Below are positions 1-47,441 of a stretch of 64,000 nucleotides of DNA, piece after piece. Made by a program: the position numbers and the translations under genes. Source of the stretch: Candidatus Omnitrophota bacterium (GTDB taxonomy: Bacteria > Omnitrophota > Gorgyraeia > Zapsychrales > Zapsychraceae); the NCBI GenBank assembly GCA_020632515.1, contig JACKFK010000004.1, positions 192,068 through 256,067 on the forward strand. The letters are read 5' to 3'. The first letter of the stretch is position 1. Each line of letters starts with the position of its first letter. Under the pieces are notes generated by a model. The model saw nothing but the letters and a program-made list of their open reading frames with translations, searched no databases and was not told the DNA's origin.

Positions 1-2
1 AG

Positions 3-28077: not shown

Positions 28078-28677
28078 ATGAACGAAAACATTATCCCTCA
28101 TGAAGCAATTATTAAAAAACAAGACCGCTGGAGACTGAATCAGCATAAATCTGTTATCCTTTGGTTTACCGGGTTATCCGGATCCGGAAAATCCACCTTA
28201 TCGCATAAGTTAGAAGCAGCTTTGTATGAACGCGGTGTACGCACGTATGTTCTTGACGGCGATAATGTCCGTAAGGGCATGAATAAAGATTTAGGGTTTG
28301 CCCCGGAAGACCGCAAAGAAAATATCCGTCGTATCGGCGAGATGACCAAGCTTTTTATGGACTGCGGCATCATTATGATGACGGCGTTTATTTCTCCTTA
28401 CCGTGAAGACCGGGCCATGGTGCGTTCGTTGGTGGAGAAGAGTGAATTTGTGGAAGTTTATATGAAATGTTCCGTGGATGTTTGCGAGCGTCGTGATGTC
28501 AAAGGTCTTTACAAAAAAGCCCGTGCCGGTGAGATTAAGAATTTTACCGGAATCAGCGCGCCTTACGAAGAACCGCAAAATCCGGAAATTGTCATCGAAT
28601 CCGATGCAATGACCCTGGACGAAAGCGTTGCAAAGATCGTTCAGTATTTGGAAGAAAAAGGGTGCTTGAAGTGCTAA
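28078..28677 (+). CDS. cysC: adenylylsulfate (APS) kinase
   Basis: VILWFTGLSGSGKSTLS P-loop and YVLDGDNVRKGMNKDLGFAPEDRKENIRRIGE. Confidence 0.95.
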   Translation: MNENIIPHEAIIKKQDRWRLNQHKSVILWFTGLSGSGKSTLSHKLEAALYERGVRTYVLDGDNVRKGMNKDLGFAPEDRKENIRRIGEMTKLFMDCGIIMMTAFISPYREDRAMVRSLVEKSEFVEVYMKCSVDVCERRDVKGLYKKARAGEIKNFTGISAPYEEPQNPEIVIESDAMTLDESVAKIVQYLEEKGCLKC

Positions 28678-28888
28678 GTGATAAGTGGTAAGTGGTAAGT
28701 GGTAAGTCTGAAACAAGTCACAAAGTCGCAAAGTCACAAGGTCACAAGGTCATCGTGTCAGCTATCAGCTTTCAGCGATCAGAAAAAAATATACTCTCCG
28801 GCCGCCAGGAGTCAGTGCTGTTGAGCAGCAACCGATTCAACTTCGTAAGTTGAACTAGGTTTGCTTTGATAAAATAAAGAAATTAATA
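28678..28888 (+). repeat. intergenic repeat mosaic S5
   Basis: The heptamer array GTGCTAA GTGATAA GTGGTAA x3 (28671-28705) includes the cysC stop. Then four 8-mers (28717-28748), CAGNNNT heptamers, a degenerate CCAGGAG hairpin and the CGATTCAACTT hairpin. Confidence 0.9.
28830..28862 (+). repeat. 33-nt hairpin motif, copy 1
   Basis: AACCGATTCAACTTCGTAAGTTGAACTAGGTTT (stem TCAACTT/AAGTTGA). Confidence 0.85.
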
Positions 28889-29188
28889 ATGTCAATACGT
28901 TTGGAAAGTTTAAAACAATTAAAGGATTTAATTTTATTGAATTTAAAAGATGAGTCGATAAAAGTTTTTCTGTTTGGATCCAGCGCCCGAGAAGATTATG
29001 AAAATGGTTCGGATATTGATATTGGATTATTACCCAAAGAGTCGGTGAATGAAAATATAATAACAATTCTTAAAGAAAAAATTGAACATTTAAATATTCC
29101 TTACAAAGTTGAACTTGTTAATTTTAGGGAAACAAGTGAAGAGTTTGTTAATGATGCGATGAAAGACGCGGTGATATGGAAAGATTAA
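28889..29188 (+). CDS. mntA: minimal nucleotidyltransferase (MNT-type antitoxin)
   Basis: NTase motif LFGSSAREDYENGSDIDIGLL. Overlaps the downstream HEPN gene. Confidence 0.8.
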   Translation: MSIRLESLKQLKDLILLNLKDESIKVFLFGSSAREDYENGSDIDIGLLPKESVNENIITILKEKIEHLNIPYKVELVNFRETSEEFVNDAMKDAVIWKD

Positions 29189-29556
29189 GATTAAAACATC
29201 AAGATGCGGTAAAGGCTTTGTCTACGTTTACCGAGATTTTGGGAGAACCTTATTCCGTTATTATCCGTGATGCTAGTATTCAACGCTTTGAATATACCTT
29301 TGAAGCTTTTTGGAAATATTTTAAAGAATATTTAAAAATCAAAGAAGGGATTATGGCGGCTTCTCCTAAAGCAGTGTTTCGCGAGTTGCTGGCAATCCAA
29401 TTCGTTACAGAAGAACAGGCTGTCGCATTATTAGAGATGACTGACCGGCGTAATGACACGGTCCATACTTATAAAGAAGCTGTGGCGAAGATTATTTACG
29501 AAAAGTTACAAGGTTATTGCCAACTCATGAGAGGTGTTTTAAATATTGGTTGTTAA
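29176..29556 (+). CDS. hepT: HEPN-domain protein (HI0074-family NTase substrate-binding protein; HepT-type toxin)
   Basis: Rx4H motif RRNDTVH. Size and pairing with MNT fit the family. Confidence 0.75.
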   Translation: MERLRLKHQDAVKALSTFTEILGEPYSVIIRDASIQRFEYTFEAFWKYFKEYLKIKEGIMAASPKAVFRELLAIQFVTEEQAVALLEMTDRRNDTVHTYKEAVAKIIYEKLQGYCQLMRGVLNIGC

Positions 29557-29771
29557 GTTGCTCGTTGCTAGAAAAAGTCACAAGGTCACAAAGTCACAAA
29601 GTCACAAGGTCATAAAGCTTCCGTTTTCTTTTTTTCTGGTCACCAGCGACTGGAGACTGGAGACTGATACACGGTGGCTTGGTGACACAAGTTTCAGATT
29701 TGAGTTGTTTTGACGTTGTGACTTTTACACGATGACTTGGTGACTATTAGCTATCAGTCATCAGCATTCAG
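29557..29771 (+). repeat. intergenic repeat mosaic S6a (left of IS copy 2)
   Basis: TAAGTTGCT(CGTTGCT)AGAAAAA, five 8-mers (29577-29616), the AAGCTTCCG...GGTCACCAGCGACTGGAGAC module, one GTGAC-box unit and heptamers. Confidence 0.9.
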
Positions 29772-29856
29772 TTAAAATGAATAATTGTGTCCTCCCATCC
29801 TAGGAGTTAACCTAGGATGAGAAAGAATAATAACCCAAAAAAGGAGGACACAAGTT

Positions 29857-30888
29857 ATGATAACAATCGGCGTTGATTTTCACAAGCAAACATCAAGTTA
29901 CCATGTTTTAGATGAAAACGGAAAATTTCTTAAACGTTGTAAACTAAAAAATAATGAAGAAAATATCCGTAAATTTATTCAAAGTTTTCAAGGCCCAAAA
30001 CAAGTCGCTATGGAAGCCACTCGTAATTGGGGAATATTTTTCGAATGTATCAAAGATTTAGTTGACGATTTTCAATTAGGACATCCTAAGAAAATGAAAG
30101 CCATAACAGACTCTGAAACAAAGAACGACAAGCATGACGCTCAAATGATTGCCAAACTAACTTACAGTAAGTTTTTACCTAAGGCTCATGTAAGTCATTT
30201 AGACAATCGCCAATTACGAAGCCTTTTACGCTATCGTCATTTTCTTGTTAAGCAACGCCGCGCGATTCGTCAACAAGTTCAAACGTTAATTGATCGTAAT
30301 CTCTGGCCGTGTGATCGTCCCAAAGCGTTCAAAGATATCTTTTGTAAAAAAGGCATTCAATGGTTAAAAAGCATTACATTACATGAAAGAGAACGATTCA
30401 TTCTCGATCAAGCATTAGAATCTTTTGAAGACTTAAGTCGGCGCATTCTTCAAATCGAAGATTACGTTAATCAACAAACAGCTGAACTTAAAGGCTTAGA
30501 ATATTTACGAACAACGCCCGGCTTTAAAACAAGCCGTGTTAACGCCTATATTGTCTTATTAGAAACCGATGACATTCATCGTTTTCGTAAAGCGAACGGC
30601 TTTGCTCATTACGCCGGCTTAGTTCCACGTGAACATTCTTCAGGTTCAAAACAACGTCACGGCCGATTAGTTAAAAATGCTAATATGCATTTAAGAACCG
30701 CTTTTATTGAATCAACTTTAGCCGCTATTCGTTTAGACAAAGGTCTTAAAAGTTATTACAAGAAAGTTAAAAAATCCAGCGGATCTGGCTCCGCCATCAT
30801 TGCCTGTGCCCGTAAATTATCTTATGCTGTTTATCATGTTTTAAAAGATCAACGCCCTTATCGGGCTGAATCACCTGTAGCCGCCTGA
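29857..30888 (+). CDS. IS110-family transposase (identical 343-aa product)
   Basis: Same translation as 26569..27600. Confidence 0.92.
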   Translation: MITIGVDFHKQTSSYHVLDENGKFLKRCKLKNNEENIRKFIQSFQGPKQVAMEATRNWGIFFECIKDLVDDFQLGHPKKMKAITDSETKNDKHDAQMIAKLTYSKFLPKAHVSHLDNRQLRSLLRYRHFLVKQRRAIRQQVQTLIDRNLWPCDRPKAFKDIFCKKGIQWLKSITLHERERFILDQALESFEDLSRRILQIEDYVNQQTAELKGLEYLRTTPGFKTSRVNAYIVLLETDDIHRFRKANGFAHYAGLVPREHSSGSKQRHGRLVKNANMHLRTAFIESTLAAIRLDKGLKSYYKKVKKSSGSGSAIIACARKLSYAVYHVLKDQRPYRAESPVAA

Positions 30889-31068
30889 TAGCTGCCGCCT
30901 GTTTGCTTTTGCAATCGAGGTCTCTCTCAGTTTCGCGGTACTTGGTGATCAATTTTATTTTGAGTGTCTTTTTGACGACTCCAATACTAGCTTATTCACA
31001 TTTTTTTGTAGTGACTTTGCGTTCTTTAAACATTTTTTTCGAACTATTGACACAATTATTCATACTAG
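30889..31068 (+). ncRNA. candidate transposon-encoded guide RNA region, copy 2
   Basis: Identical to 27601-27780. Confidence 0.35.
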
Positions 31069-31302
31069 CTATCAGAAAGTATAGTCTCCTGTCGCCAGGA
31101 GACAGTGACCAGTACTGGTTGCTGGAAACTTGAGACTAGCGACTGATACCAACAACTGACACGGTGACATTGTGACAAGAGTTTCAGATATGCGCTGATG
31201 TGACGTTGTGACTTTTACACGGTGACTTTGTGACACAAGTTTCAGATTTGGGTTGTTGTGACATTGTGACTTGTCGATAGCTAAGAACCGGATAACGGAC
31301 TT
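31069..31302 (+). repeat. intergenic repeat mosaic S6b
   Basis: Heptamer remainder, hairpin GTCTCCTGTCGCCAGGAGAC, CCAGTACTGG, two tandem GTGAC-box units and CGATAGCTAAGAACCGGATAAC. Confidence 0.9.
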
Positions 31303-32103
31303 ATGAACGAACTTTTAAAAGTTATTAAAACCGCGGTCAAGGCGGGTGCGGCGACAATGGAAATCTACACAACAGATTTTGCTGTTGAGTACAAAGACGA
31401 CCAATCACCGCTGACGCTGGCCGATAAAAAATCGCATGAAATTATTGTCGCTGGATTGCAAAGTCTGGATCTGGCTGCGCCGATTTTAAGTGAAGAAGGC
31501 CGCAGTATTACCTATGATGAGCGCCGGCAGTGGGATTGTTTCTGGTGTGTTGATCCGCTGGACGGGACCAAAGAATTTGTGAATAAGCGCGATGAATTTA
31601 CTGTCAACATCGCTTTTATCGACGGACAGAAACCGATTCTTGGGGTTATCTATGTCCCGGCGAAAAAAATACTTTATTTTGCCGGCAAAGGGATTGGCGT
31701 TTATAAATGCGATCATTTAGATCAGTTAAATGAGATGGAAAGCCTGGATCAGCTTTTTTCAGTTTCACAAACATTACCAAATTGTGAAAACAATCGTCCG
31801 TACACGGTGGTGGCGAGTAAATCCCACATGAATCAGGCAACGGAAGAGTTTATTGATGAATTGAAAAAAAAGACAGAAGACTTGGAATTAATCAGCGCCG
31901 GCAGTTCGCTGAAGTTTTGTTTAGTGGCCGAGGGAAAAGCTGATTGTTACCCGCGTTTTGGCCCGACTTGTGAATGGGACACCGCAGCCGGCCAGGCCAT
32001 TTGCCAGGAAGCAGGTTTTGATGTTGTGGATCATACAAACGGCGGTACATTGAAATATAATAAGGAAGACTTGCTTAATCCGTCATTTTTGGTGATGAGA
32101 TAA
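31303..32103 (+). CDS. cysQ: 3'(2'),5'-bisphosphate nucleotidase
   Basis: ILSEEG and WCVDPLDGTKEF inositol-monophosphatase-family motifs, plus C-terminal WDTAAGQAI. Confidence 0.9.
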   Translation: MNELLKVIKTAVKAGAATMEIYTTDFAVEYKDDQSPLTLADKKSHEIIVAGLQSLDLAAPILSEEGRSITYDERRQWDCFWCVDPLDGTKEFVNKRDEFTVNIAFIDGQKPILGVIYVPAKKILYFAGKGIGVYKCDHLDQLNEMESLDQLFSVSQTLPNCENNRPYTVVASKSHMNQATEEFIDELKKKTEDLELISAGSSLKFCLVAEGKADCYPRFGPTCEWDTAAGQAICQEAGFDVVDHTNGGTLKYNKEDLLNPSFLVMR

Positions 32104-32326
32104 GTGCTGTTGTAGCGATCAGCCATCAAATGTCACAAGGTCACAAGGTCACAAAGTCGCAAAGTCGCAAAGTCGCAAAGTCGCAAAGTCACAAAGTCGC
32201 AAAGATACCAAGTCACAATGTCACAAAGTCATAAAGCTTCCGTTTTCTTTTTTTCTGGTCACCAGCGACTGGAGACTGATACACGGTGACATTGTGACTT
32301 TCTGAAAGCTGTCAACCGACACAACC
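32104..32326 (+). repeat. intergenic repeat mosaic S7 with longest octamer array
   Basis: Thirteen phased 8-mers occupy 32132-32235 (GTCACAAG x2, GTCACAAA, GTCGCAAA x4, ...). Then the AAGCTTCCG...GGTCACCAGCGACTGGAGAC module. Confidence 0.92.
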
Positions 32327-32355
32327 TTGACAATGTGGATATATGGTATTATAGT
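32327..32355 (+). promoter_or_regulatory. sigma70-type promoter of AAA+ ATPase 1
   Basis: TTGACA-17 nt-TATAGT. The GTG at 32335 used by the ORF track lies inside the spacer. Confidence 0.65.
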
Positions 32356-32391
32356 TATACTGCAAATGATATATATGAAATTATGGTAAAC

Positions 32392-33696
32392 ATGATTATT
32401 CAACGTGATATTATACACAAAATTAAACCTTTTTTAGAGCGCAGGGAATGTTTAGCCCTTATCGGCCCGCGGCAGACAGGAAAAACTACTCTTTTACAGC
32501 TAATTACAGACTATTTATATAAAGAAAAAAATGTTGATAAGGAATTGGTAAAGAGGATCAGTTTTGAAGACCGGAAACTGTTGTTTCAATTTGAAAAAGA
32601 TCCTTGTGAATTTGTTAGATCTTATTGGCCGGGGGCTGCCAAGCAAACGTTTTACTTTATGATTGATGAGTTTCAATACGCCAGCGAAGGTGGACAAAAG
32701 TTAAAACTGATTTATGACACCTTTACCAATCTTAAGCTATTGATTACAGGATCATCATCTCTGGATCTGCGGGCGCAGGTGGGAAAATATATGGTAGGAC
32801 GGATATTGAGTTTTTATATTTATCCGTTTAATTTTCATGAAATCTTAAAAACGAGGTCTTCTCGTTTAGAACGCGCTTACGCACGGCAAAACAAACAAAT
32901 TAAAAATTGGCTCTTTGAAAATCAACCCCTGGATTTGAAAAAAGGTGATGATTTGTTACACGAGGAAATGACAAAAGCCTTTGAAGATTACTGTGTTTGG
33001 GGCGGGTACCCGCAAATTGTCCTTACAGAAGATATTGAACAAAGAAAGAAAGTTTTAAATGATCTTTATAACAATTATCTTTTAAAAGACATTAAAACAT
33101 CATTAGAGTTGGCCACAGAAAAAGAGCTTTATAAACTTTCGCAATATATCGCGACACAGGTAGGACAGATTACGGTTTATCAGAATTTATCTCAGGCCTC
33201 AGGGCTTGAGTACCGGACTTTAAAAAAGCATTTATCGATTTTAGAAGAAACATTTATTATTAAAAGTGTAACGCCGTTTTTCAGAAATAAACAGAAAGAG
33301 CTGTCGCGGAATCCTAAAATATTTTTCTTGGATATGGGGTTTCGCAACGCGCTTATCGACGATATCAATGATCTGGAAAAAAGGCCCGATGCCGGGAACA
33401 TGGTGGAAAATACGGTATATGTACAGCTTTTAAAAAACTTTATACAGGCTGATAAATTAAATTTTTACCGGACTAAAATGGGCTCAGAAATTGATTTTAT
33501 CACATGGAATAACCACGCCATTATTCCAATGGAAGTTAAATATAAAGTTTTTAAACAAGAGCAGATTTCTAAAGGATTTCGTAGTTTTATTGAGCAGTTT
33601 AAGCCGGAGAAGGCCATTGTTTGGACAAAGAACTTCTGGGGGATGCTCGAAGAAAATGGAACGCAGATTTTGTTTGCACCGGGGTATTATTGTTAA
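32392..33696 (+). CDS. AAA+ ATPase, COG1373 type (AAA_14 + DUF4143), paralog 1
   Basis: Walker A GPRQTGKTTLLQ and Walker B FYFMIDEFQY. The start was moved to ATG 32392 (32383 is also possible) because of the upstream promoter. Confidence 0.8.
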   Translation: MIIQRDIIHKIKPFLERRECLALIGPRQTGKTTLLQLITDYLYKEKNVDKELVKRISFEDRKLLFQFEKDPCEFVRSYWPGAAKQTFYFMIDEFQYASEGGQKLKLIYDTFTNLKLLITGSSSLDLRAQVGKYMVGRILSFYIYPFNFHEILKTRSSRLERAYARQNKQIKNWLFENQPLDLKKGDDLLHEEMTKAFEDYCVWGGYPQIVLTEDIEQRKKVLNDLYNNYLLKDIKTSLELATEKELYKLSQYIATQVGQITVYQNLSQASGLEYRTLKKHLSILEETFIIKSVTPFFRNKQKELSRNPKIFFLDMGFRNALIDDINDLEKRPDAGNMVENTVYVQLLKNFIQADKLNFYRTKMGSEIDFITWNNHAIIPMEVKYKVFKQEQISKGFRSFIEQFKPEKAIVWTKNFWGMLEENGTQILFAPGYYC

Positions 33697-34078
33697 GTTG
33701 CTAGAAAAGATCGCAAAGTGACCTTGTGACTTTCTGAAAGTTGACGACTGAAAGTGAAAGCTAAGAGTCGGACAACTGACACGGTGCCATTGTGACAAAA
33801 GTTTCAGATTTGAGTTGTTTTGACGCTGTGGCTTTTACACGGTGACTTTGTGACACAAGTTTCAGATTTGGGTTGTTGTGACATTGTGACTTGTCGATAG
33901 CTAAGAACCGGATAACTGACACGGTGCCATTGTGACAAGAGTTTCAGATTTGAGCTGTTGTGACCTTGTGACTTGTTGACAGCTGACATCTGAATTGATT
34001 AAAACCGTAAACAAACCTCCGAGGTTTGTTTGTGGTTAAGAACCGGATAACTGACAATTCGACATTTCAGATTGTTAT
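33697..34078 (+). repeat. intergenic repeat mosaic S8
   Basis: TAAGTTGCTAGAAAA at the stop and inverse heptamers. Three 58-nt GTGAC-box units at 33779-33836, 33837-33894 and 33919-33976. The 31-nt palindrome is also present. Confidence 0.92.
34005..34035 (+). repeat. 31-nt palindromic hairpin element, copy b
   Basis: CCGTAAACAAACCTC-C-GAGGTTTGTTTGTGG. The two non-Watson-Crick positions are G.U-compatible on the + strand only. Confidence 0.85.
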
Positions 34079-34107
34079 TTGACAAAATGACTATCATACT
34101 GTATAAT
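34079..34107 (+). promoter_or_regulatory. consensus sigma70-type promoter of AAA+ ATPase 2
   Basis: TTGACA-17 nt-TATAAT, both hexamers perfect. Confidence 0.75.
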
Positions 34108-34150
34108 TACTTTATAAAATGATATTATTTATTGAGGATAAGGGGCAGAA

Positions 34151-35350
34151 ATGATTGATTTTAAGGCCATCTTTGAATATGACCGTTTAGCCAAAGAAGA
34201 AGGAAAGAAATATCAGAAACGACGATTTTTTTATAATGAAATCGTGCAAACGCAGGGAAAACATTTCACTGGTATTCTGGGTGCCCGCGGAGTAGGTAAA
34301 ACAATTTTATTAAAACAGCTGGCTTGTGAACAGCCGCAGTCACTTTATGTTTCTCTGGATGCGGTTGATGTTGATCTTTTTGAACTGGCTAAGAAAGCCA
34401 AAGAAGAGTTTAAGATTCAATCGCTGTTGCTGGATGAGGTGCACTTTCATCCGCGATTCCAGGAAAATCTGAAGAAAATTTATGATTTTTTGGATATTCA
34501 AGTAATTTTTACCAGCTCTATTGCCTTAGCGTTAATTGAATCGCAATATGATCTTTCACGAAGGGTTTTGTTAAAGAAGTTATATCCGTTTTCATTTCGT
34601 GAATATCTTTATTTTAAATATGACGTGGAATTTCCTTCGCTGACATTTGATCAGATTATTCAAAAGGAAGTAGATTCAAAATTCTTTTCCTACAGTCAGA
34701 ATTTTAGTGATTATCTGCAAGGAGGTATTTTCCCTTTTGCCATTGAAGAACCGTTTGTTTTGGATTTGCTTAAGAATGTGGCTGCTAAAGTTATTCGTAA
34801 AGATATTCCCCGCGTCACTGATATCAGTGTATCGGAAATTGAAATTATCGAAAAAGTGCTTCAGTTTATCGGAACATCCGGGATTGATGGAATTAATTAT
34901 TCATCGATCTCACAGAACTGCGGCATTACTAAATATAAAGCGCAGCAATATGTCGAGTTGTTAGAAAAAGCGTTTATTATTCATCAGATTTTTCCTAAAG
35001 GAACAAATGTGCTGAAAGAGCCGAAGATTTTAATGGCTGTTCCCTATCGCTTGCTTTACACGGATTTTCAAAGGGCTTTAGGAGGATTAAGAGAAGATTT
35101 TCTTGTGGAAATGATGCGTTCTTTGGGGAAAGAAATTTATTATTTGAAATCAACCCGCGGCCAAAAAACACCGGATTATTTGTTAACACATCAACAGAAG
35201 AATGTTGTTGTTGAAGTCGGGGGAAAAGGAAAAGGCCGACAGCAGTTTAAAGGGATTGTGCCTGACCAGAAAATCATCGCTGCCGACGCGGTAACATTTG
35301 ATGAATTGCGCCGTCCGTTATTTTTGTTTGGATTTTTAAGTGATAAATAA
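34151..35350 (+). CDS. AAA+ ATPase, COG1373 type, paralog 2
   Basis: Walker A GARGVGKTILLKQ, Walker B LLLDEVHF, and LYPFSFREYL as in the other paralogs. Confidence 0.75.
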   Translation: MIDFKAIFEYDRLAKEEGKKYQKRRFFYNEIVQTQGKHFTGILGARGVGKTILLKQLACEQPQSLYVSLDAVDVDLFELAKKAKEEFKIQSLLLDEVHFHPRFQENLKKIYDFLDIQVIFTSSIALALIESQYDLSRRVLLKKLYPFSFREYLYFKYDVEFPSLTFDQIIQKEVDSKFFSYSQNFSDYLQGGIFPFAIEEPFVLDLLKNVAAKVIRKDIPRVTDISVSEIEIIEKVLQFIGTSGIDGINYSSISQNCGITKYKAQQYVELLEKAFIIHQIFPKGTNVLKEPKILMAVPYRLLYTDFQRALGGLREDFLVEMMRSLGKEIYYLKSTRGQKTPDYLLTHQQKNVVVEVGGKGKGRQQFKGIVPDQKIIAADAVTFDELRRPLFLFGFLSDK

Positions 35351-35648
35351 GTCTCCTGTCGCCAGGAGACAGTGATCAGTAAGAAACAACCGATTCAACT
35401 TCGTAAGTTGAACTAGGTTTACTTGTGACTTTCTGAAATCTGACAGCTGAAAGCTAAGAACCGGATAACTGACACGGTGACATTGTGACAAGAGTTTCAG
35501 ATTTGAGTTGTTTTGACGTTGTGACTTTTACACGGTGACTTGGTGACACAAGTTTCAGATTTGAGCTGTTGTGACTTTTTGACAGCTACGCACCGGATAA
35601 CTGACACAGTGACATTGTGACTTTTGTACGAAACATGAAAGGATTTTT
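35351..35648 (+). repeat. intergenic repeat mosaic S9
   Basis: Hairpin GTCTCCTGTCGCCAGGAGAC (35351-35370), the 33-nt hairpin, inverse heptamers and two tandem GTGAC-box units, ending in GTGACATTGTGAC just before the gmd RBS. Confidence 0.9.
35388..35420 (+). repeat. 33-nt hairpin motif, copy 2
   Basis: AACCGATTCAACTTCGTAAGTTGAACTAGGTTT, identical to copy 1. Confidence 0.85.
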
Positions 35649-37931: not shown

Positions 37932-37939
37932 GCGCTTAG

Positions 37940-37968: not shown

Positions 37969-37973
37969 TTACG

Positions 37974-39594: not shown

Positions 39595-39602
39595 TTCAGT
39601 AT

Positions 39603-39621: not shown

Positions 39622-39634
39622 TTTATGAAAAAAT

Positions 39635-40267
39635 ATGAAAGTTTTGACAGAGCTAATTTTAGATAATTATAAAAGTGATATTCTAACCACTGCAGATGTG
39701 GTCACTTTGTCTAAAGGGTCTTCGGATCGACGTTACGGTCTGGTTAAGCGGGCTTTGGCGGCAGAGGAGATTATCCAAATTCGAAGAGGCCTGTACTATT
39801 TAGCAAAGAAGTATCAGCGTGGGCCAATGAATTTGTTTGCTTTAGCCCAGAGAATCTATGGACCGTCATATATTAGTTTTGAATCGGCTTTATCGTATCA
39901 TGGCTGGATTCCGGAGGCTGTTTATCTTACGGCGAGTGCCAGTATTCGTAAAGCAATAAGATACACAACCCCGTTAGGGATTTTTGATTATAAGCGGATT
40001 CCTTGCGCAGATTTTTTCTATGAGGTTAATCGGATTCAAAATGAAGCAGAGGATATTTTTTTTATGGCTTCACCGATTAGAGCTTTGGTTGACTATATTT
40101 ATGTTTATAAAAAAGATTGGCCGGATTTAAAGGCTATTGCGCAAGACTTGAGAATTGAACCGGAAAATTTTAATGAAATTAAAAAAGAAGCATTGCAAGG
40201 TTTTAAGGAAAATTTTAAAAGCCGCAGAGTTAAACGGTTTATTAAGATGCTGGAAGGGAACGTTTGA
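39635..40267 (+). CDS. abiEi: AbiEi-family antitoxin / transcriptional regulator
   Basis: N-terminal wHTH-like LTTADVVTLSKGSSDRRYGLVKRALAAEEIIQIRRGLYYL. Overlaps the downstream AbiEii gene by 4 nt. Confidence 0.75.
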   Translation: MKVLTELILDNYKSDILTTADVVTLSKGSSDRRYGLVKRALAAEEIIQIRRGLYYLAKKYQRGPMNLFALAQRIYGPSYISFESALSYHGWIPEAVYLTASASIRKAIRYTTPLGIFDYKRIPCADFFYEVNRIQNEAEDIFFMASPIRALVDYIYVYKKDWPDLKAIAQDLRIEPENFNEIKKEALQGFKENFKSRRVKRFIKMLEGNV

Positions 40268-41133
40268 GCGTCAAAATTATTCAAGAACGTTTAAATCTTT
40301 ATCAATGCGCTTCCGTGCAGGAAGAAGCTCAAGCTTTACGGGAAATAACCCAGGAAGTAGCATTGGCTGCGCTCGCGCGAACGGATTTTTTTAAGTATGC
40401 AGCGTTTCATGGAGGAACCTGTTTGCGGATTCTTTACGGGCTTAACCGGTTTTCAGAAGATCTAGATTTTACGCTAAAGCAGCCTGACAACGGTTTTCAA
40501 GTTGAATCATATATTAGTAATTTAGCTGTTGAATTTAAAGCTTTTGGTTTTGAGTTGGAGGTGATCGATCGTTCAGAAGCAGAACTTCCCGTAAAAAAAG
40601 TATTTCTAAAGGATAATTCAATCGGGAAAGTATTAAAATTAAAACATTTAAAAAGTGACCGCTCGGAAAAGAAGATCAAGATTAAACTAGAGATTGATAC
40701 TAATCCGCCGGATCATGCCGGATACGAAAGTAAAATGGTTGATTTCCCTTTTATTTTTTCACTTACGGCATTGGATCGAAGTAGTTTATTTGCCGGTAAG
40801 ATCCATGCGCTGCTTTCACGGATTTATGTTAAAGGACGTGATTGGTATGATTTTCTGTGGTATCTCCGTAATAAAGATTTCATCAATCTTAAATATCTGT
40901 CCAGTGCTTTAGATCAGCAGGGGCCATGGCAGGGACAGAAATTAACGGTTGATCAGAATTGGGTTGTAGAAGCGTTGACGGAAAAAATCAAAAATCTGGA
41001 TTGGGATAATGCGATTAAAGATGTGCTTAAATTTATTAAACCGTTAGAAGTTAAATCTGTGGAGCTGTGGAATAAAGAGCTGTTTTTAGCACAGTTAGAG
41101 AAATATCTAAAAGAGAAAAAAGATCACAACTGA
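40264..41133 (+). CDS. abiEii: AbiEii/AbiGii-family nucleotidyltransferase toxin
   Basis: FHGGTCLRILYGLNRFSEDLDF NTase motif. TTG start overlaps the abiEi stop. Confidence 0.85.
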   Translation: MSVKIIQERLNLYQCASVQEEAQALREITQEVALAALARTDFFKYAAFHGGTCLRILYGLNRFSEDLDFTLKQPDNGFQVESYISNLAVEFKAFGFELEVIDRSEAELPVKKVFLKDNSIGKVLKLKHLKSDRSEKKIKIKLEIDTNPPDHAGYESKMVDFPFIFSLTALDRSSLFAGKIHALLSRIYVKGRDWYDFLWYLRNKDFINLKYLSSALDQQGPWQGQKLTVDQNWVVEALTEKIKNLDWDNAIKDVLKFIKPLEVKSVELWNKELFLAQLEKYLKEKKDHN

Positions 41134-41773
41134 CAATACGGTGGCTTTGTGACTATCAGCCATCAGCGTTCAGTCATCAGCCATCAGAAGAAAAAAATCT
41201 GATCGCTGAAATCTGAAGACTGAAAGCTAAGAGCCGGGCAACTGATGCGGCGACATTGTGACTTTCTGAAAGCTGACGACTGAAAGCTGAAAGCTACACG
41301 CCGGATAACTGACACAGTGACTTTTAATCCTTTTTTAACCATCTCTTAATGTAAGGTTTGATAGGGTAATTGGTTGCCTGGACAAACCCGGACAGTCTGG
41401 GTTAGATATATTGATCTTTAAAGTAATTATGATATTATTTATCGTCGAGAAACAAAAGGGGGGCCAGTACTGGTCACTGGAGACTTGAGACTGGCGACTG
41501 ACAATACGGTGACCTTGTGATCTTGTGACTTTTTGACGCACCGGACAACTGACATAGTGACGTTGCGACATTGTGACTTTATGACAACTAATAGAAATTA
41601 TTTAAAGGTAGTTTAACACAATAAGAATTAATTAGAGTTAACAGTTTGAGATAAATAAAAGTAAAAAGAGTTAATTCAAATTAAGTTAAACCAATTTGTA
41701 GATTAAATTGATGAGGATAAGAAATTAGAGACAGACACGGTGACTTTGCAACATTGTGACCTTGTGACTTGTT
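41134..41773 (+). repeat. intergenic repeat mosaic S13 plus unique AT-rich segments (largest gap, 640 bp)
   Basis: Contains heptamer/inverse-heptamer palindrome, GTGAC boxes and a CCAGTACTGG module. Unique segments are 41335-41460 and an AT-rich stretch at 41580-41745 with 4 x AGTT(T)AAY. The minus-strand ORF 41335..41571 runs through repeats and is not believed. Confidence 0.85.
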
Positions 41774-42718
41774 ATGAAAACAATCTTACTCACCGGCGCT
41801 GCCGGATTTATCGGACATAAAACCGCGGAATTTCTTTGTCAGAAAGAATACAAAGTAATCGGCATTGATAACCTTAATGACTATTACGATGTGAATCTTA
41901 AGAAATCCCGGCTTAAACAATTAAAAGCGAATAAAAATTTCACTTTTTATAAGCTGGACATTGAAAATTTAAACGCGCTAAAAAAACTGTTTAAACAATA
42001 CCGGTTTACTGCGGTCATTAATCTGGCGGCACGCGCCGGGGTTCGCTACAGCATGGTTAATCCGTTTGTATATTTTACGACAAACGCCAATGGCACATTA
42101 AACCTGCTGGAGCTGTGTAAGGATTTTAAAGTAAAGAAATTTGTTTTGGCGTCGACGTCATCACTTTATGCCGGACAGAAAATGCCGTTTAAAGAAAATC
42201 TGGCCGTGAATACGCCCATTTCCAGTTACGCGGCCAGTAAAAAAGCGGCTGAGGTAACAGCGTATACGTATCATTATCTTTATGGCATTGATGTTACGGT
42301 CTTGCGGTATTTCACCGTCTATGGCCCGGGCGGACGGCCGGATATGAGTGTGGATCGTTTTATTAAATGGATCGATCAGGGAAAACCTATTCAGCTTTAT
42401 GGCGACGGTACCCAGGCGCGGGATTTTACCTATGTAGATGACATTGCCCGGGGAACGATCAAAGCGTTAAAAAAAGTGGGATTTAAAATTATTAACTTAG
42501 GCGGAGGCAATAAACCGTACACGTTGAAGTTTCTAATTCAATTAATTGAACAGAATTTAGGGAAGAAAGCAAAAATTAAACAACATCCTTTTGTAAAAAC
42601 CGACATGAAAGCCACTTGGGCTGATATCCGTGAAGCTAAGAAAGTGCTAGGTTGGCAGCCGACGGTGAATTTAAAAGAAGGCATAAAGAAATCAATTGAT
42701 TGGTATCAGAGTTATTGA
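41774..42718 (+). CDS. NAD-dependent epimerase/dehydratase, UDP-glucuronate 4-epimerase-like
   Basis: ILLTGAAGFIGHKTAEFL...VIGIDNLNDYYDVNLKKSRL, with the STSSLYG and YAASKKA catalytic motif. Confidence 0.8.
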   Translation: MKTILLTGAAGFIGHKTAEFLCQKEYKVIGIDNLNDYYDVNLKKSRLKQLKANKNFTFYKLDIENLNALKKLFKQYRFTAVINLAARAGVRYSMVNPFVYFTTNANGTLNLLELCKDFKVKKFVLASTSSLYAGQKMPFKENLAVNTPISSYAASKKAAEVTAYTYHYLYGIDVTVLRYFTVYGPGGRPDMSVDRFIKWIDQGKPIQLYGDGTQARDFTYVDDIARGTIKALKKVGFKIINLGGGNKPYTLKFLIQLIEQNLGKKAKIKQHPFVKTDMKATWADIREAKKVLGWQPTVNLKEGIKKSIDWYQSY

Positions 42719-42861
42719 TGAGAGGAATTAAATTAATCATTGTATATATCAGTATAGTAGTTTTTAGTATAAATAATGATTATTCTTAAATATTTATTTT
42801 TTGTGGGAAGCTTTTAATAATAAAAAATAAAGTAGATGACTTTCTAAAATATGAGACATAC

Positions 42862-43443
42862 ATGAATAAATTACAATTATTAATATTTAGATTATTTGTA
42901 AATATAGGAATTCTTTTTTATCGAGATATATGGGTGCTAAAAGATAAGATTAATTGTTTGTCTGCTAGTTATAAAAAAAGATTATTGATTTGCATTTTTG
43001 AAAAACATTTGGGAAAAAGGGGGAGTTGGATTGGATATGAGACAAAATTTTCTAATACACCATGTTTTCCGCATGGTATATGTGGAATTTTTATTTCAGG
43101 GGGAGTTGTAATAGGTAAGAATTGTGTTATATTTCAACATGTTACTATTGGTTCGAATACATTATACGATTCAAAAACAAAAGGATTTCCTACAATAGGG
43201 GATAATTGTTATATAGGAGCCGGAGCAAAAATAATTGGTAATATAAAAATTGGAAATAATTGTAGAATTGGGGCAAATTGTGTGGTCTATCAAAATTTGA
43301 ACGATAATACTTGTGCAGTTTCCCAACCAACTCGATTAATTGTTAAAGAACACTTAAATAATAGATATTATTCTAAACGTAATAATAAGTGGTGCTTTTT
43401 TCAAGATGGAAAATGGATTGAGGATCCAATGTATCAGTTGTAA
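42862..43443 (+). CDS. left-handed beta-helix (hexapeptide-repeat) O-acetyltransferase
   Basis: GIFISGGVVIGKNCVIFQHVTIGS...PTIGDNCYIGAGAKIIGNIKIGNNCRIGANCVV. Confidence 0.8.
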   Translation: MNKLQLLIFRLFVNIGILFYRDIWVLKDKINCLSASYKKRLLICIFEKHLGKRGSWIGYETKFSNTPCFPHGICGIFISGGVVIGKNCVIFQHVTIGSNTLYDSKTKGFPTIGDNCYIGAGAKIIGNIKIGNNCRIGANCVVYQNLNDNTCAVSQPTRLIVKEHLNNRYYSKRNNKWCFFQDGKWIEDPMYQL

Positions 43444-43491
43444 TGAAGGTAAAGGAAATTTAGATTGATTTAATATTAAAAAATAAATTTT

Positions 43492-44943
43492 ATGACATAT
43501 AAAAGTAGAATTTTTTCTTCTATAAGATGGTCTGGTCTATTATCAGGATCGTCAATTATTATTGAATTTTTAAAATATGCAATTCTAGCTCGTTTACTTG
43601 ATCCAAAAGATTTTGGATTAGTGAGTATGGTAAGTGTTGTTATAGGATTTGCTTTGGCTTATACCGATGTTGGGATATCTACAGCTCTTATTCATTTTCA
43701 AAATGTTACTAAAAGGGAACTTTCCAGTCTTTATTGGATGAATATATTTTGTGGTATATTTATTTTTTTATTGATCCAAATAATTGTTCCGGGAATTGCC
43801 TATTTTTATAATGAAGAAGATATAAAACCTTTGATTAGAATTGCTAGTTTTGCATTCTTGATAATACCTTTTGGGCAACAATTTCGAACGTTACTAAAGA
43901 AGGAATTGAAATTTAAAGTTCTTTCTAAGATTGAATTTATTGCAGCTTTTGTGGGATTATGTGTTTGTATTGTTTCTGCTTTTTTACATTATGGGCCTTT
44001 TTCATTAATTTTGGGAGCTTTAGCAAAAGTTTGTACTGATACAATGATTATTTTATTCATTTCGTGGAAAGAAATCGATTTAAATTTTCACTTTTCCCTA
44101 TCAGAAATTAAAAAATATTTACGTTTTGGTTTTTGGCAATTGGGTGAAAGAAGTTTAATTTTTGTTTCAGCTAATATCGATTATTTGTTAGTTGGACGAT
44201 ATTTAGGACCAAAAATATTGGGATTTTATACCTTAGCTTATCAATTAATTGTTAAACCTTTTTTAACAATTAATCCGATTTTGACTCAGGTAGCTTTTCC
44301 AGTATTTTCGAGAAATCAAAAGGATAATAAAGTATTACAGAATGGATATTTAAAAATAATAAAGTTGCTCGCTATCATAGTTTTTCCAATAGTGATTTGT
44401 ATTTCGATTCTTTCACCAATCATTGTTCCTTTGATTTATGGGCCAAATTGGGAAGTATCAATCATCATAATTCAAATATTATTACCAGTTGGAATTTTTA
44501 AAGCTTTAGGAAATCCTTCTGGGAGTATTATTCTAGCTAAAGGTCGACCAGACATTGGTTTTAAATGGAATTTGTTTGTGTTATCCATGAATTTTATTGT
44601 CTTTTCTATTGCTGTAAGGATTGGGATTGTGCAAATGGCATATGCGTGGAATATTTTAAGTTTTTTATATTTTTTTATAATTCAATTCATTATTTATTAC
44701 CTTATTAATCTCAGGCTTAATGTTTTTTTAAGTTTTATCAAAGTTCCAATTTTATTAAATTTGGTTCTAGGGGTTATGTTGTATAGTGTTCTGCAGAATT
44801 TTATCAATCAGGCAATAAATTTATCTACCCTTTCATTATTTTTAGCAACAATAGCAGGTGGATATGTTTTATTATTGTATGTTTTTGAGAAGGAATTTAT
44901 CAATTATTTATTAATTCATTTGTTTAAAATCAAGAAAGTATAA
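43492..44943 (+). CDS. wzx: Wzx-type polysaccharide flippase (second copy)
   Basis: Polytopic MOP-family layout. ...LKYAILARLLDPKDFGLVSMV... is typical of lipopolysaccharide/EPS flippases. Confidence 0.8.
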   Translation: MTYKSRIFSSIRWSGLLSGSSIIIEFLKYAILARLLDPKDFGLVSMVSVVIGFALAYTDVGISTALIHFQNVTKRELSSLYWMNIFCGIFIFLLIQIIVPGIAYFYNEEDIKPLIRIASFAFLIIPFGQQFRTLLKKELKFKVLSKIEFIAAFVGLCVCIVSAFLHYGPFSLILGALAKVCTDTMIILFISWKEIDLNFHFSLSEIKKYLRFGFWQLGERSLIFVSANIDYLLVGRYLGPKILGFYTLAYQLIVKPFLTINPILTQVAFPVFSRNQKDNKVLQNGYLKIIKLLAIIVFPIVICISILSPIIVPLIYGPNWEVSIIIIQILLPVGIFKALGNPSGSIILAKGRPDIGFKWNLFVLSMNFIVFSIAVRIGIVQMAYAWNILSFLYFFIIQFIIYYLINLRLNVFLSFIKVPILLNLVLGVMLYSVLQNFINQAINLSTLSLFLATIAGGYVLLLYVFEKEFINYLLIHLFKIKKV

Positions 44944-46616
44944 TGTCTGGTCTAATTGGTTTTACAACTAAGAATTTATCAAAAGAAATAGGGTTAAAAG
45001 CATTGACACAAATGCGTGGTCTTATAATGCATTGTGATTTTTATAAAACTGATAATTTGTTTAATAATGATGCCGTTTTTGCAACGCGTTGTCACAAAGG
45101 GATTATCCAAAAGGAAAGCCAGCCGTTTAAAAATAATGGTTGTTATATATGGCTAGAGGGTGAATTATACAATCAAGAAGAATTAAAAGAACATTATGGG
45201 GTCAAATCTGAGACTGATCTTGAATTATTGGTCGATCTATATTCGATAAGTAATAATTTAGATTTTTTAATTACGATTGATGGAATTTTCACAGCTGTGT
45301 TGTTTGATTCTAATCGAGGTATGCTTTATTTATTTAATGATCGGTTTGGTTTGCAACCATTTTATTGGACAGTAATAAATAAATCTTTTATATGGTTCTC
45401 AGAGTTAAAAGCGCTCTTAGGGTTCCCTGAGTTTAAGATTAATTTAGATCGTCAAGCAATTAAAGAATATTTAAGGTTTGGTTTTTTTCTAAATGATAAA
45501 ACTTGGTTTAAGGATGTTAGACTGTTATCTTCAGCAACAGTTTTATGTTTTAATATTCGTACACAGGAGTTAAAAGAAAAGAAGTATTGGGATTTAAGAA
45601 ATATTTCAATAAATAAGAATATCGATGAAAATGCAATTATTGATGAGTTGGGTAGGTTGTTCTTACAATCTGTAAAAAAAAGATTTAGAGTTTCAGAGAG
45701 GATTGGGGTTACTCTAAGTGGTGGTTTAGATTCAAGAGCTATTTTTGCAGCAATTCCTTTAATTGATTCTCCGTTACCTGTTGTAACTTTTGGAAGAAAG
45801 GGGTGTTTGGATATAAAAATTGCCAAACAAGTTATTAAAAAGAGATCAAATTCTAAACATCATATTTTTGATATTAATGCTAATAATTGGTTAGCCAATC
45901 GGATATCCGGTGTTTGGTGGTCTGATGGGCAAAAAAATATTATACATATGCATGGAATAACTGAAATTGCTCGGAATAAGGAATTAATGGATATTACTTT
46001 AGATGGTTTCTTGGGAGATGCTATATTGGGAGGGTCTTATTTTAATGATAAAAACTTTACGATTTTTGAGAAATTTGAGAATAGAGGTAGACGTTTTATC
46101 TTGCTGGGACAAAAAATAAGAGGAATATATTTATTTCAACGTTTTCCATTCTTTGACAAAGATTTAATGGATTTTGTTTTATCTATACCGGAGCATTTAA
46201 GGCAAGATTCTTATATATATAATAGGATGCTATTAAGTAAGTTTCCGGAATTTTTTAAAGAAATTGCTTGGTGTAAAACTCGCGTTCCTATTTCATGGAA
46301 TAGATATAAAGGAAAAATATATAGATTGCCATTTACTATGCGAGATCGGATTCTAAAAAAAATAAATATTCATATAGCATCATCACAACTATATACAGAT
46401 TATTTAAATTGGTTGAAAATTGATCCAGCAAAACAATTAGTAGATGAGATTTTACAAAATCCTAAAGCCATATATCGAGATTACATCAAATCGGAGGATT
46501 CAGAAATTCTTTTTGATTCACAAAGATATAGAAAAATATCTATAGATAAGATTGGTCTTTATATTACATTAGAGATATGGCTTCAACAATTATTTCATAA
46601 AAAGTATTTGGTATAG
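44943..46616 (+). CDS. asparagine-synthetase-B-like amidotransferase/amide ligase (N-terminal nucleophile Cys replaced by Ser)
   Basis: The N-terminus is MSGLIGF (canonical MCGI). The PP-loop GVTLSGGLDSRAI is present. Confidence 0.75.
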   Translation: MSGLIGFTTKNLSKEIGLKALTQMRGLIMHCDFYKTDNLFNNDAVFATRCHKGIIQKESQPFKNNGCYIWLEGELYNQEELKEHYGVKSETDLELLVDLYSISNNLDFLITIDGIFTAVLFDSNRGMLYLFNDRFGLQPFYWTVINKSFIWFSELKALLGFPEFKINLDRQAIKEYLRFGFFLNDKTWFKDVRLLSSATVLCFNIRTQELKEKKYWDLRNISINKNIDENAIIDELGRLFLQSVKKRFRVSERIGVTLSGGLDSRAIFAAIPLIDSPLPVVTFGRKGCLDIKIAKQVIKKRSNSKHHIFDINANNWLANRISGVWWSDGQKNIIHMHGITEIARNKELMDITLDGFLGDAILGGSYFNDKNFTIFEKFENRGRRFILLGQKIRGIYLFQRFPFFDKDLMDFVLSIPEHLRQDSYIYNRMLLSKFPEFFKEIAWCKTRVPISWNRYKGKIYRLPFTMRDRILKKINIHIASSQLYTDYLNWLKIDPAKQLVDEILQNPKAIYRDYIKSEDSEILFDSQRYRKISIDKIGLYITLEIWLQQLFHKKYLV

Positions 46617-46664
46617 AATTTTAAATTAATTGGAAGTAATCATTTAACGAGAGAAAATTTAAAT

Positions 46665-47441
46665 ATGAATAAAGAAAGAAGATATATTTTTTCAATCAAC
46701 ACAGGACGAGCAGGTTCAGAATATTTATCAACATTGTTGGCAGCTACAAATGAGTGTGAATCTTGTCATGAAGCTTATCCAAATTTTGCCAGTGATATGA
46801 TAAGAAAAGTGAATATTTTAGGCAATGAAGCAACGTTAGATCTTCAGCGAATAAAAATAAATTATCTTAAGAATTTAGATATTAAAAAAACTGTTTATGC
46901 GGATACAAGCCATATTTTTATAAAATCTTGGTATTATGCGGCGGTTAAAGATTTAGAGAATATTATGGTTATTTGGTTGAAAAGGAATAAAGAAGAAATC
47001 ATTAAAAGTCTTATACGGTTAAAAGCTATTCCAAATAAGACAGTATTAGGAAATAATTGGTATCTTCGTACAGATTATCCAACGAATTTGTTATCAGCTA
47101 AATCTAATTTATCAGATTATCAATTATGTGATTGGTATGTTTCAGAAATAGAGGCTAGGGCATTATATTTTAAAAAAAGTTTTCCTAATATTCCTTTTTT
47201 TTCGGTTAATTTAGAAGATTTAAATAGTTATGAATATGTATGTAAATTGTTTAGTAAATTAAACTTAACCCCAACTGATGGTTTAAAAGATATTGTTGGG
47301 AAAAAAATTAATATGAAGAGAGAAACTAAAAAAATAACATTAATTCAAAGAGTTAATAGAAAGTTAAAAAGAAGTTTTATTAAATGTAATCCGTTTAAGA
47401 ATCGAAATCGAATTCATATCATAGGTGATGGAATTTATTGA
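46665..47441 (+). CDS. putative PAPS-dependent sulfotransferase
   Basis: 5'-PSB-like loop SINTGRAGSEYLSTLL (aa 11-26) and 3'-PB-like LKRNKEEIIKSL (R107...S115, R-x7-S spacing as in RNPxDxxxS). Confidence 0.5.
   Translation: MNKERRYIFSINTGRAGSEYLSTLLAATNECESCHEAYPNFASDMIRKVNILGNEATLDLQRIKINYLKNLDIKKTVYADTSHIFIKSWYYAAVKDLENIMVIWLKRNKEEIIKSLIRLKAIPNKTVLGNNWYLRTDYPTNLLSAKSNLSDYQLCDWYVSEIEARALYFKKSFPNIPFFSVNLEDLNSYEYVCKLFSKLNLTPTDGLKDIVGKKINMKRETKKITLIQRVNRKLKRSFIKCNPFKNRNRIHIIGDGIY

Follow-up and report, generated by a model that had tools for sequence, protein, structure and literature searches.

Organization of the locus

The 64,000-nucleotide stretch described here (the window; positions 192,068 to 256,067 of contig JACKFK010000004.1 in assembly GCA_020632515.1, from a Candidatus Omnitrophota bacterium) carries cysC, the gene for an adenosine 5'-phosphosulfate (APS) kinase, cysQ, the gene for a 3'-phosphoadenosine 5'-phosphate (PAP) phosphatase, and ORF 46665, an open reading frame (ORF) for a divergent protein with the predicted fold of sulfotransferases that use 3'-phosphoadenosine 5'-phosphosulfate (PAPS). 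The substantial ORFs between 48 and 58448 all lie on the plus strand. Scans with Pfam and NCBIfam models covered essentially every ORF of the window and resolved three zones. The first is a Wzx/Wzy-type glycan cluster (cluster 1; 48-26250, plus strand), the second an inter-cluster mosaic of about 26.2-41.8 kb that contains cysC and cysQ, and the third, recognized from the Pfam scans and the composition profile, another Wzx/Wzy-type glycan cluster (cluster 2; 41774-58448, plus strand) that contains ORF 46665. The window is probably best explained as one co-directional cell-envelope glycan super-locus with two Wzx/Wzy-type polysaccharide clusters. An earlier inspection of the letters alone, below called the sequence-only reading, had predicted a sulfated polysaccharide from this region. 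The family profile, fold and loci of ORF 46665, together with a canonical sulfotransferase gene just outside the window, make that prediction a likely one, and the organism very probably makes sulfated polysaccharides.

The canonical sulfotransferase gene was found on a public contig (L007) that has an identical priming transferase and extends the locus upstream. Because window positions 1-3355 are matched at 99.9% identity, this contig belongs to the same population genome. At its positions 6841-7803 on the plus strand, which is 584-1546 nt upstream of window position 1, it encodes a protein of 320 amino acids (aa) that matches Sulfotransfer_3 at 5.5e-35 (122 bits) and Sulfotransfer_1 at 5.5e-13. 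Since this gene heads cluster 1 and ORF 46665 lies in cluster 2, there is one sulfotransferase for each glycan cluster, and cysC and cysQ lie between the two clusters. This arrangement of two clusters with their own sulfotransferases flanking the PAPS genes is the strongest support for a sulfated polysaccharide.

Genes for PAPS formation and PAP removal

CysC (28078-28677, plus strand; 199 aa) is a monofunctional APS kinase, which converts APS and ATP to PAPS. It matches Pfam APS_kinase at 9.1e-70, lies above the curated equivalog thresholds of TIGR00455 (275 bits vs 138.7) and NF003013 (300 bits vs 163), and has an intact P-loop (GLSGSGKST) as well as intact DGDN, FISP and KGLY motifs. CysQ (31303-32103, plus strand; 266 aa) is a 3'(2'),5'-bisphosphate nucleotidase, which cleaves PAP to AMP and phosphate. 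It matches Pfam Inositol_P at 2.9e-49 and scores above the TIGR01331 equivalog cutoff (261 vs 228.8 bits) and below the enterobacterial model NF008182 (228 vs 379 bits); the metal-binding motifs DPLDGT and WDTAAG of the inositol-monophosphatase fold are kept. With curated thresholds passed and catalytic motifs conserved, the identities that the sequence-only reading gave to both genes are borne out. The same reading saw no ATP sulfurylase in the window. Searches by tblastn agree with it: Sat, CysD and CysN sequences of other loci, confirmed with Pfam, served as queries, and no match had an E-value below 5.8 in the window and two flanking contigs, L007 with 8.4 kb of additional upstream sequence and a small downstream contig, L008. 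In the 72 kb examined there was no cysH, cysIJ, sat or cysDN.

The closest cysC match among the representatives of the Genome Taxonomy Database (GTDB) is at 64%. The only other Omnitrophota cysC locus that was recovered has the gene among lpxB, rmlC and rmlD, not with cysH or cysIJ. In a metagenome-assembled genome (MAG) of the Thiotrichaceae (L087, 7785-10600), gmd (71% identical to the gmd gene of the window), fcl and cysC stand in a row between two modular polyketide synthase genes, which encode proteins of 2,268 and 2,225 aa with KS, KR, DH and ACP domains. This locus suggests that cysC travels with secondary-metabolite clusters.

ORF 46665, a divergent sulfotransferase-fold protein

ORF 46665 (46665-47441, plus strand) is positioned in cluster 2 between an AsnB-like gene and a gene for a family 4 glycosyltransferase (GT4). 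It encodes 258 aa and its product is 100% identical to H6755_01400. The sequence-only reading had pointed to two PAPS-binding-like motifs in this protein, and both are found where it placed them: NTGRAGSEYL at aa 12-21 (nt 46698-46727) forms the 5'-phosphosulfate-binding (PSB) loop, and RNKEEIIKS at aa 107-115 (nt 46983-47009) is an R-x7-S 3'-phosphate-binding (3'-PB) motif. The two motif arginines are 92 residues apart. That the motifs are not chance occurrences is shown by the family alignment. A word-indexed protein search with ORF 46665 returned five relatives, and an exhaustive profile search collected 1,366 clusters at 50% identity with E<=1e-3, 118 of them with E<=1e-30. Named members come from bacteria of the Planctomycetes-Verrucomicrobia-Chlamydiae (PVC) superphylum and from Bacteroidota. 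Judged by these searches, the family is real, sizeable and unannotated.

In an alignment of 136 family sequences R15, G17, P39 and R107 are invariant, and the positions conserved in at least 90% of the sequences include G14, H35, E36, K64, H83, K87 and S115. The PSB-like loop G-R-x-G-S and the R-x7-S motif are therefore the most constrained parts of the protein, as R15, G17 and R107 never vary and G14 and S115 rarely do. Two further conserved motifs are specific to the family, HE-x2-P and [ED][TS][NS]HxF[IV]K; the conserved H35-E36 pair is encoded at nt 46764-46781 and H83/K87 at nt 46902-46928. The 21-residue spacing of R15 and E36 and the 8-residue spacing of R107 and S115 are the same as those of Arg78/Glu99 and Arg183/Ser191 in TPST2, which we take to be catalytic residues of that enzyme. 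A basic C-terminal tail (aa ~216-258) is conserved in the four closest relatives. Within it a helix is predicted at aa 226-240 with low confidence (pLDDT ~50-80). No signal peptide was seen by inspection of the sequence, and the basic tail may hold the protein at the membrane.

Sequence profiles connect the family to known sulfotransferases. Counting Pfam matches at E<=0.01, 24 of the 136 family members reach Sulfotransfer_3 and 16/136 reach Sulfotransfer_1, the best at 5e-8. Comparison of the family profile with three canonical locus-associated sulfotransferases by hhalign gave 92% probability (E=5.8e-7). Against the upstream sulfotransferase alone the probability was 81%, in an alignment that pairs NTGRAGSEY with VPRSGTTLV and LKRNKEEIIKS with VVRDPRAVINS. 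A hidden Markov model (HMM) seeded with canonical sulfotransferases only, to the exclusion of family members, recovered 53 of 87 family ORFs after one iteration. Through one family member, P0215, the R-x7-S motif is aligned with VRNPKDTAVSM of SULT7A1, a weak alignment with E=0.13. A search of the family profile against PDB sequences gave chance matches to thioredoxins, as well as SULT1A3 (E=0.27) and CurM-ST (E=1.1) at the 3'-PB region; these sub-threshold matches are unusable as evidence by themselves. A zinc-finger match of ORF 46665 at E=0.17 was discarded as spurious.

The predicted structure agrees with the profile comparisons. A first AlphaFold2 (AF2) model, made from a 6-sequence alignment, was too poor (pLDDT 69.6) and was replaced by a model on the 136-sequence alignment, which reached a pLDDT of 91.0 and a pTM of 0.86. 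In this model the PSB region consists of a strand (aa 6-11), the loop G14-R15-A16-G17-S18 and a helix (18-26), and the 3'-PB region of a strand (100-106), R107 and a helix (109-118) that contains S115. The top 14 PDB matches found by Foldseek are TPST1/2 and CurM-ST, with E-values of 1e-6 to 8e-5 and TM-scores normalized to the query (TMq) that are mostly 0.50-0.54. Lower-ranking matches include OLS sulfotransferase, heparan sulfate (HS) 3-OST and NDST. The P-loop nucleotide kinases, which have the ancestral fold in common with sulfotransferases, score less well with TMq 0.40-0.43. With solved sulfotransferases as the closest matches, the sulfotransferase fold suspected from the motifs finds support in the predicted structure, at a sequence identity to these enzymes of 11-16%.

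An operational definition of sulfotransferases asks for a Lys or Arg in the PSB, a Ser in the PB helix and a beta-sheet architecture, and an RxG form of the PSB loop has been described for NodH and PF13469 (PMC11625862). ORF 46665 has all three features of this definition, and its PSB loop is without the Walker-A lysine (GxxxxGK[ST]). With Sulfotransfer_3 (PF13469), NodH, Stf0 and TPST it shares R-x-G-[ST] (R15-A16-G17-S18), R-x7-S (R107...S115) and the fold. It differs from them in the HE-x2-P and histidine-lysine motifs given above, and in the basic tail of its closest relatives. It stays below the gathering thresholds of Pfam Sulfotransfer_1/_3/_4 and Stf0, and it is in no curated sulfotransferase family. 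In all likelihood ORF 46665 encodes a member of the sulfotransferase superfamily.

Genomic neighborhoods of the family

The seven family loci examined first are all glycan loci rich in glycosyltransferases, most of them with Wzx or Wzy. The gene for the closest relative on a long contig (P0004, 56% identity) has a canonical Sulfotransfer_3 gene and a wzx gene as its immediate neighbors, one on each side. Next to the family member in the window is an AsnB-like amidotransferase gene, and the same holds for three syntenic loci (L002, L005 and L006; ~10001-12615), one of which is from the flavobacterium Mangrovimonas spongiae, and a Sulfotransfer_3 gene is also present in two of these three. The sulfotransferase-like and AsnB-like proteins may form a functional pair, for example by placing an amidated uronic acid and a sulfate on the same repeat unit. 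A linkage of gmd/fcl to the sulfotransferase-like gene in the closest relative, L001, was rejected, since the short-chain dehydrogenase/reductase genes of that locus are not gmd/fcl orthologues.

For a test of enrichment, 80 further metagenomic family loci were compared with 80 control loci centred on cysC, and presence was counted for loci of at least 8 kb. Apart from the family members themselves, the family loci contain 40 sulfotransferase-type ORFs, of which 33 match Sulfotransfer_3 and 32 match Sulfotransfer_1. The density of canonical sulfotransferases is 5.4 per 100 kb in family loci and 0.53 in controls, and at least one was present in 17/38 family loci vs 4/69 control loci (Fisher p=2.7e-6). 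Because the controls were unmatched for the presence of a glycan locus, this enrichment indicates an association with multi-sulfotransferase glycan loci, not a function. PAPS genes seldom occur close by. The two exceptions are L167, where a family member is followed by sulfotransferase, wzx, sulfotransferase and cysC in this order, and L110, where cysQ lies ~1.9 kb from the family member.

The inter-cluster mosaic

From left to right, the region between the clusters contains an element of the IS110 family of insertion sequences (IS), cysC, an MNT/HepT pair, a second IS110 element, cysQ, two AAA_14/DUF4143 ATPase genes, gmd, fcl, a third ATPase gene and an AbiEi/AbiEii pair. According to the sequence-only reading cysC and cysQ are embedded among sugar-nucleotide genes. 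This holds at a distance, with a UDP-GlcNAc 2-epimerase gene upstream and gmd and fcl downstream, but the nearest neighbors are the two IS110 copies, the MNT/HepT pair and the AAA_14/DUF4143 ATPases. The product of gmd (35649-36737, plus strand) scores 612 bits with TIGR01472 (cutoff 415). That of fcl, a GDP-L-fucose synthase (36851-37894, plus strand), scores 429.5 bits with NF047922, which is below the 500-bit cutoff. The two genes are assigned to GDP-L-fucose synthesis, and as undoubted glycan-precursor genes they share the inter-cluster region with cysC and cysQ.

Both IS110 elements are on the plus strand and carry a transposase matching Pfam DEDD_Tnp_IS110 and Transposase_20. Copy 1 (26489-27775; transposase 26569-27600) is directly upstream of cysC, and copy 2 (29777-31063; transposase 29857-30888), which is 100% identical, is directly upstream of cysQ. 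The elements measure 1,287 bp, with 15-bp terminal inverted repeats (ATGAATAATTGTGTC / GACACAATTATTCAT), and occupy equivalent positions in host modules (...AGCTATCAG...), so that they bracket cysC and the MNT/HepT pair. The 1,657-nt repeated segments in which they lie are 98.7% identical and consist of the identical 1,287-bp core and flanking modules that carry all 22 mismatches. The flanks are host repeat modules of 203 and 167 nt with ~94% identity, and such modules also occur at IS-free sites, e.g. at 32236. For this reason the idea that cysC was carried in by a composite transposon of IS110 is not supported. Two recent site-specific insertions of IS110 into equivalent modules are the simplest reading.

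Oriented repeat modules make up the region 26200-41800, with examples at 26265-26320, 28717-28748, 29577-29608, 32132-32227 and 39266-39321, and hardly occur in either glycan cluster. Downstream of genes there are arrays of the octamer GTCACAAR. Immediately upstream of several genes, cysC, cysQ and gmd among them, stand one to three tandem units of ~58 nt (ACACGGTGACATTGTGAC...GTTTCAGATTTGAGCTGTTGTGAC). Modules were mapped at 26381-26456, 27871-28081, 31159-31292, 33779-33990, 35472-35640 and 39453-39530, and two hairpins recur in the region. The modules match no Rfam family, and a search of JGI metagenomes gave no exact copy of them. Possible roles are those of cassette boundaries or of regulatory operator arrays, or the modules could be lineage-specific elements of the repetitive extragenic palindromic (REP) type.

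Proposed pathway and alternative explanations

The gene content suggests a probable route to sulfated polymers. APS would come from an ATP sulfurylase, presumably encoded elsewhere in the genome, and would be phosphorylated by CysC to PAPS. The cluster 1 sulfotransferase and the ORF 46665 protein, both predicted to be cytoplasmic, would each sulfate the repeat unit of their own cluster while it is linked to undecaprenyl diphosphate (Und-PP). The acceptor group would be a hydroxyl or, less likely, an amine. Sulfation is placed at the cytoplasmic face of the membrane, where it would precede flipping by Wzx and polymerization by Wzy; this step, proposed for both clusters, follows the model accepted for synechan (PMC8205485). 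The inhibitory by-product PAP would be hydrolyzed by CysQ, and Gmd and Fcl would supply GDP-fucose. In this scheme CysC and CysQ are assumed to serve primarily sulfation, and the catalytic activity, glycan acceptor and sulfation timing assigned to ORF 46665 are all predicted.

Several observations weigh against this pathway. The sulfated polymer is predicted from the genes of an uncultured MAG. ORF 46665 by itself matches no Pfam or NCBIfam model even at E<=10 and no PDB entry by phmmer, so the direct search against Sulfotransfer profiles that was proposed with the sequence-only reading came out negative. Its score with our own HMM of canonical sulfotransferases is 10.9 bits, and for its catalytic base H35/E36 and H83 are candidates only. 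Without sat or cysDN in the 72 kb the source of APS is unseen; the Pfam scans revealed no sulfate permease family, and there is none in the 72 kb either. The remaining objections concern the dedication of cysC and cysQ to sulfation. The two genes share no operon with either sulfotransferase gene, and the region in which they stand looks like an insertion hotspot.

On these grounds cysC and cysQ could be housekeeping PAPS genes for assimilatory reduction via PAPS reductase that happen to be placed in a 16-kb hotspot rich in IS and repeats, with the sulfotransferases drawing on a general PAPS pool. We regard this as unlikely, but of the alternatives it survives best. The IS110 copies, toxin-antitoxin pairs and ATPase genes separate cysC and cysQ from each other and from both sulfotransferase genes, and the region is made of repeated intergenic modules; because of this mosaic, the position of the two genes is possibly partly incidental. 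CysQ is equally required after CysH, the PAPS reductase, in the established E. coli pathway. Since assimilation by PAPS reductase also needs CysQ, the presence of cysC and cysQ alone cannot separate sulfation from housekeeping. Stand-alone cysC genes are common, as 47 of the 80 closest cysC loci have neither sat nor cysD within 10 kb. PAPS genes are rare near members of the ORF 46665 family and show no enrichment there, with cysC in 1/38 and cysQ in 1/38 of the loci of at least 8 kb. Against the housekeeping explanation stand the lack of cysH, cysIJ, sat and cysDN in the 72 kb and the presence of the glycan-precursor genes gmd and fcl in the same mosaic. Two sulfotransferase genes in the flanking clusters create a demand for PAPS and for PAP removal, and the other Omnitrophota cysC is also found among envelope-sugar genes. 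In any case this explanation bears on the dedication of cysC and cysQ only, and the predicted sulfated polymer is compatible with it.

A further reading, rather doubtful as a whole, has two separate parts. In the first, the ORF 46665 family is a large glycan-sulfotransferase clade unseen by Pfam and NCBIfam. In the second, the region 26-42 kb is a cassette-like array in which single genes or pairs (cysC, cysQ, gmd, fcl, the toxin-antitoxin genes and the ATPases) are bracketed by the same oriented modules, which would also be the site-specific target of IS110. If this were true, supply genes for sulfation and fucosylation would be shuffled as mobile units between the two glycan clusters, and surveys based on PF00685, PF03567 and PF13469 would undercount bacterial polysaccharide sulfation, given a family of at least 1,366 clusters at 50% identity.

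Least probable is that ORF 46665 has a fold like that of sulfotransferases and P-loop kinases and is no glycan sulfotransferase, but works as a kinase or phosphotransferase, uses PAPS to modify a lipid or small molecule, or is a catalytically inactive PAP(S)-binding accessory protein: the lack of a direct match to any curated sulfotransferase model, the nucleoside monophosphate and deoxynucleoside kinases among the Foldseek matches (E ~1e-4), a catalytic base for which there are candidates only and the AsnB-like neighbor in the window, L002, L005 and L006, which could point to other chemistry, are outweighed by a G-R-A-G-S loop that has no Walker-A lysine and matches the RxG PSB loop of NodH, Stf0, TPST and PF13469, by conservation of R-x7-S, a 3'-phosphate motif specific to proteins that bind PAPS, by the rank of sulfotransferases above kinases in both E-value and TM-score, and by the occurrence of the family in glycan loci together with canonical sulfotransferases.

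Comparison with known systems

The capsular polysaccharide (CPS) cluster of Cobetia marina KMM 1449 contains cysNC, cysD, cysQ, a permease and a sulfotransferase gene, and its polymer is chemically proven to carry rhamnose 2-sulfate (PMC11766843). The window resembles it in having PAPS-synthesis and recycling genes and a sulfotransferase within a polysaccharide locus, beside nucleotide-sugar genes. The complete supply in Cobetia, with a bifunctional cysN/cysC together with cysD, cysQ and a sulfate permease gene, forms one operon in an ABC-transporter (Kps) capsule locus. In the window, by contrast, there are two Wzx/Wzy clusters, and the supply genes are a monofunctional cysC and cysQ only, split by IS110 and toxin-antitoxin genes; the sulfated product of the window is a predicted one. 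Measured against the Cobetia type, sulfotransferases do occur in the glycan clusters, with ORF 46665 in cluster 2 and the canonical one heading cluster 1, but a complete PAPS pathway with permease is replaced by APS kinase and PAP phosphatase only.

A dedicated PAPS supply together with a sulfotransferase is also found in rhizobia (nodPQ and nodH), Xanthomonas (raxPQ and raxST) and Bacteroides (cysDNC/cysQ and BT0416). The logic of these systems, in which extra or dedicated genes for APS kinase and PAP phosphatase near the sulfotransferase free sulfation from the assimilatory flux, is the same as that envisaged here. They differ in including an ATP sulfurylase and in acting on lipo-oligosaccharides, peptides or steroids, not on a Wzx/Wzy polysaccharide.

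The synechan (xss) cluster of Synechocystis is a Wzx/Wzy-dependent exopolysaccharide (EPS) cluster in which the sulfotransferases XssA and XssE modify the lipid-linked repeat unit (PMC8205485). As in synechan, several sulfotransferases of distinct subfamilies are present in one system. The synechan paper names no PAPS-supply gene in the xss cluster, and PAPS, cysC and APS kinase are unmentioned in it (PMC8205485). Further differences are that XssA and XssE are recognizable by Pfam models and ORF 46665 is not, that the phylum is another one, and that the regulators differ, with a sigma54 two-component system upstream in the present locus. The cultured Pontiella (Kiritimatiellota) has measured sulfated exopolymers similar to glycosaminoglycans (GAG), with predominantly N-sulfation (PMC7356697). 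Pontiella belongs to the PVC superphylum, and its cluster resembles the window in that PF13469 sulfotransferases stand together with GT2/GT4 genes and gmd. No PAPS genes are reported in the Pontiella cluster, and its sulfation is measured whereas here it is predicted.

Glycan clusters with PAPS genes and sulfotransferases are thus already established, and the locus is an extension of known biology, not a surprise. What is new is the phylum, the presence of two clusters with two sulfotransferases, and a divergent sulfotransferase family that is missed by curated models. Omnitrophota are ultra-small and for the most part uncultured, and literature searches gave no paper that links them to sulfotransferases or sulfated EPS. 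Sulfated polysaccharides were long seen as an essentially eukaryotic and cyanobacterial trait, and only six bacterial genera that make them were listed by a 2024 review (PMC11625862). With a confident genomic prediction for Omnitrophota, the range of sulfated surface glycans would grow by one phylum. Neither Pfam nor NCBIfam sees the ORF 46665 family, yet it is common in glycan loci. Its inclusion in searches for sulfotransferases would improve the prediction of sulfated EPS, which is relevant to metal binding, to the matrices of biofilms, to the marine carbon cycle and to biomaterials.

Other features of the locus

Upstream of the canonical sulfotransferase gene, L007 encodes an SGNH/AlgX-like protein (5556-6809), a PocR/GAF-domain protein (4506-5531) and a two-component system of a GAF-histidine kinase and a sigma54 response regulator (1799-4502). 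In the mosaic, the MNT/HepT-type toxin-antitoxin pair (28889-29556, plus strand; Pfam Polbeta/NTP_transf_2, NTase_sub_bind and HepT-like) lies between cysC and IS copy 2, and the AbiEi/AbiEii toxin-antitoxin pair is at 39635-41133. Four paralogous AAA_14/DUF4143 ATPases are encoded, three on the plus strand (32335-33696, 34151-35350 and 37974-39233) and one on the minus strand (59218-60399). The three plus-strand copies have near-consensus sigma70-like promoters at 32327-32355, 34079-34107 and 37940-37968; over 26-42 kb as a whole, promoter- and terminator-like sites occur at chance level.

Cluster 2 contains genes for an epimerase, a hexapeptide acetyltransferase, Wzx (43492-44943), the AsnB-like amidotransferase (44943-46616), the ORF 46665 protein, GT4 glycosyltransferases, Wzy (49916-51364) and a protein similar to glycoside hydrolase family 129 (GH129). 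Its GC content over 42-52 kb is 27.5-33%, vs roughly 34-46% in the first 42 kb, a drop typical of glycan regions that are exchanged horizontally and vary between serotypes. Cluster 1 encodes a porin fragment, a Bac_transf priming sugar transferase, a Wza-like exporter, a Wzz/kinase-like protein, Wzx, GT2 and GT4 glycosyltransferases, a BNR protein, Wzy, WecG/TagA and the UDP-GlcNAc 2-epimerase (25102-26250).

The GH129-like protein is an 819-aa putative glycoside hydrolase of GH129/DUF5696 type (54847-57306), and the BNR protein of cluster 1 has 692 aa with BNR/sortilin repeats (12025-14103). Both may be polymer-processing enzymes. Cluster 1 also encodes an amino-acid dehydrogenase of the Glu/Leu/Phe/Val type between two ORFs of ~450 aa (15480-16811, 18030-19244 and 19290-20675 for the three genes). 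One of the two ~450-aa ORFs has a weak Pfam AMP-binding match (5e-5) and the other has no Pfam match; our guess is that both could be ligases similar to PaaK and F390 synthetase. Such a set would be unusual for an EPS cluster and could mean that the glycan is decorated with amino acids or acyl groups.

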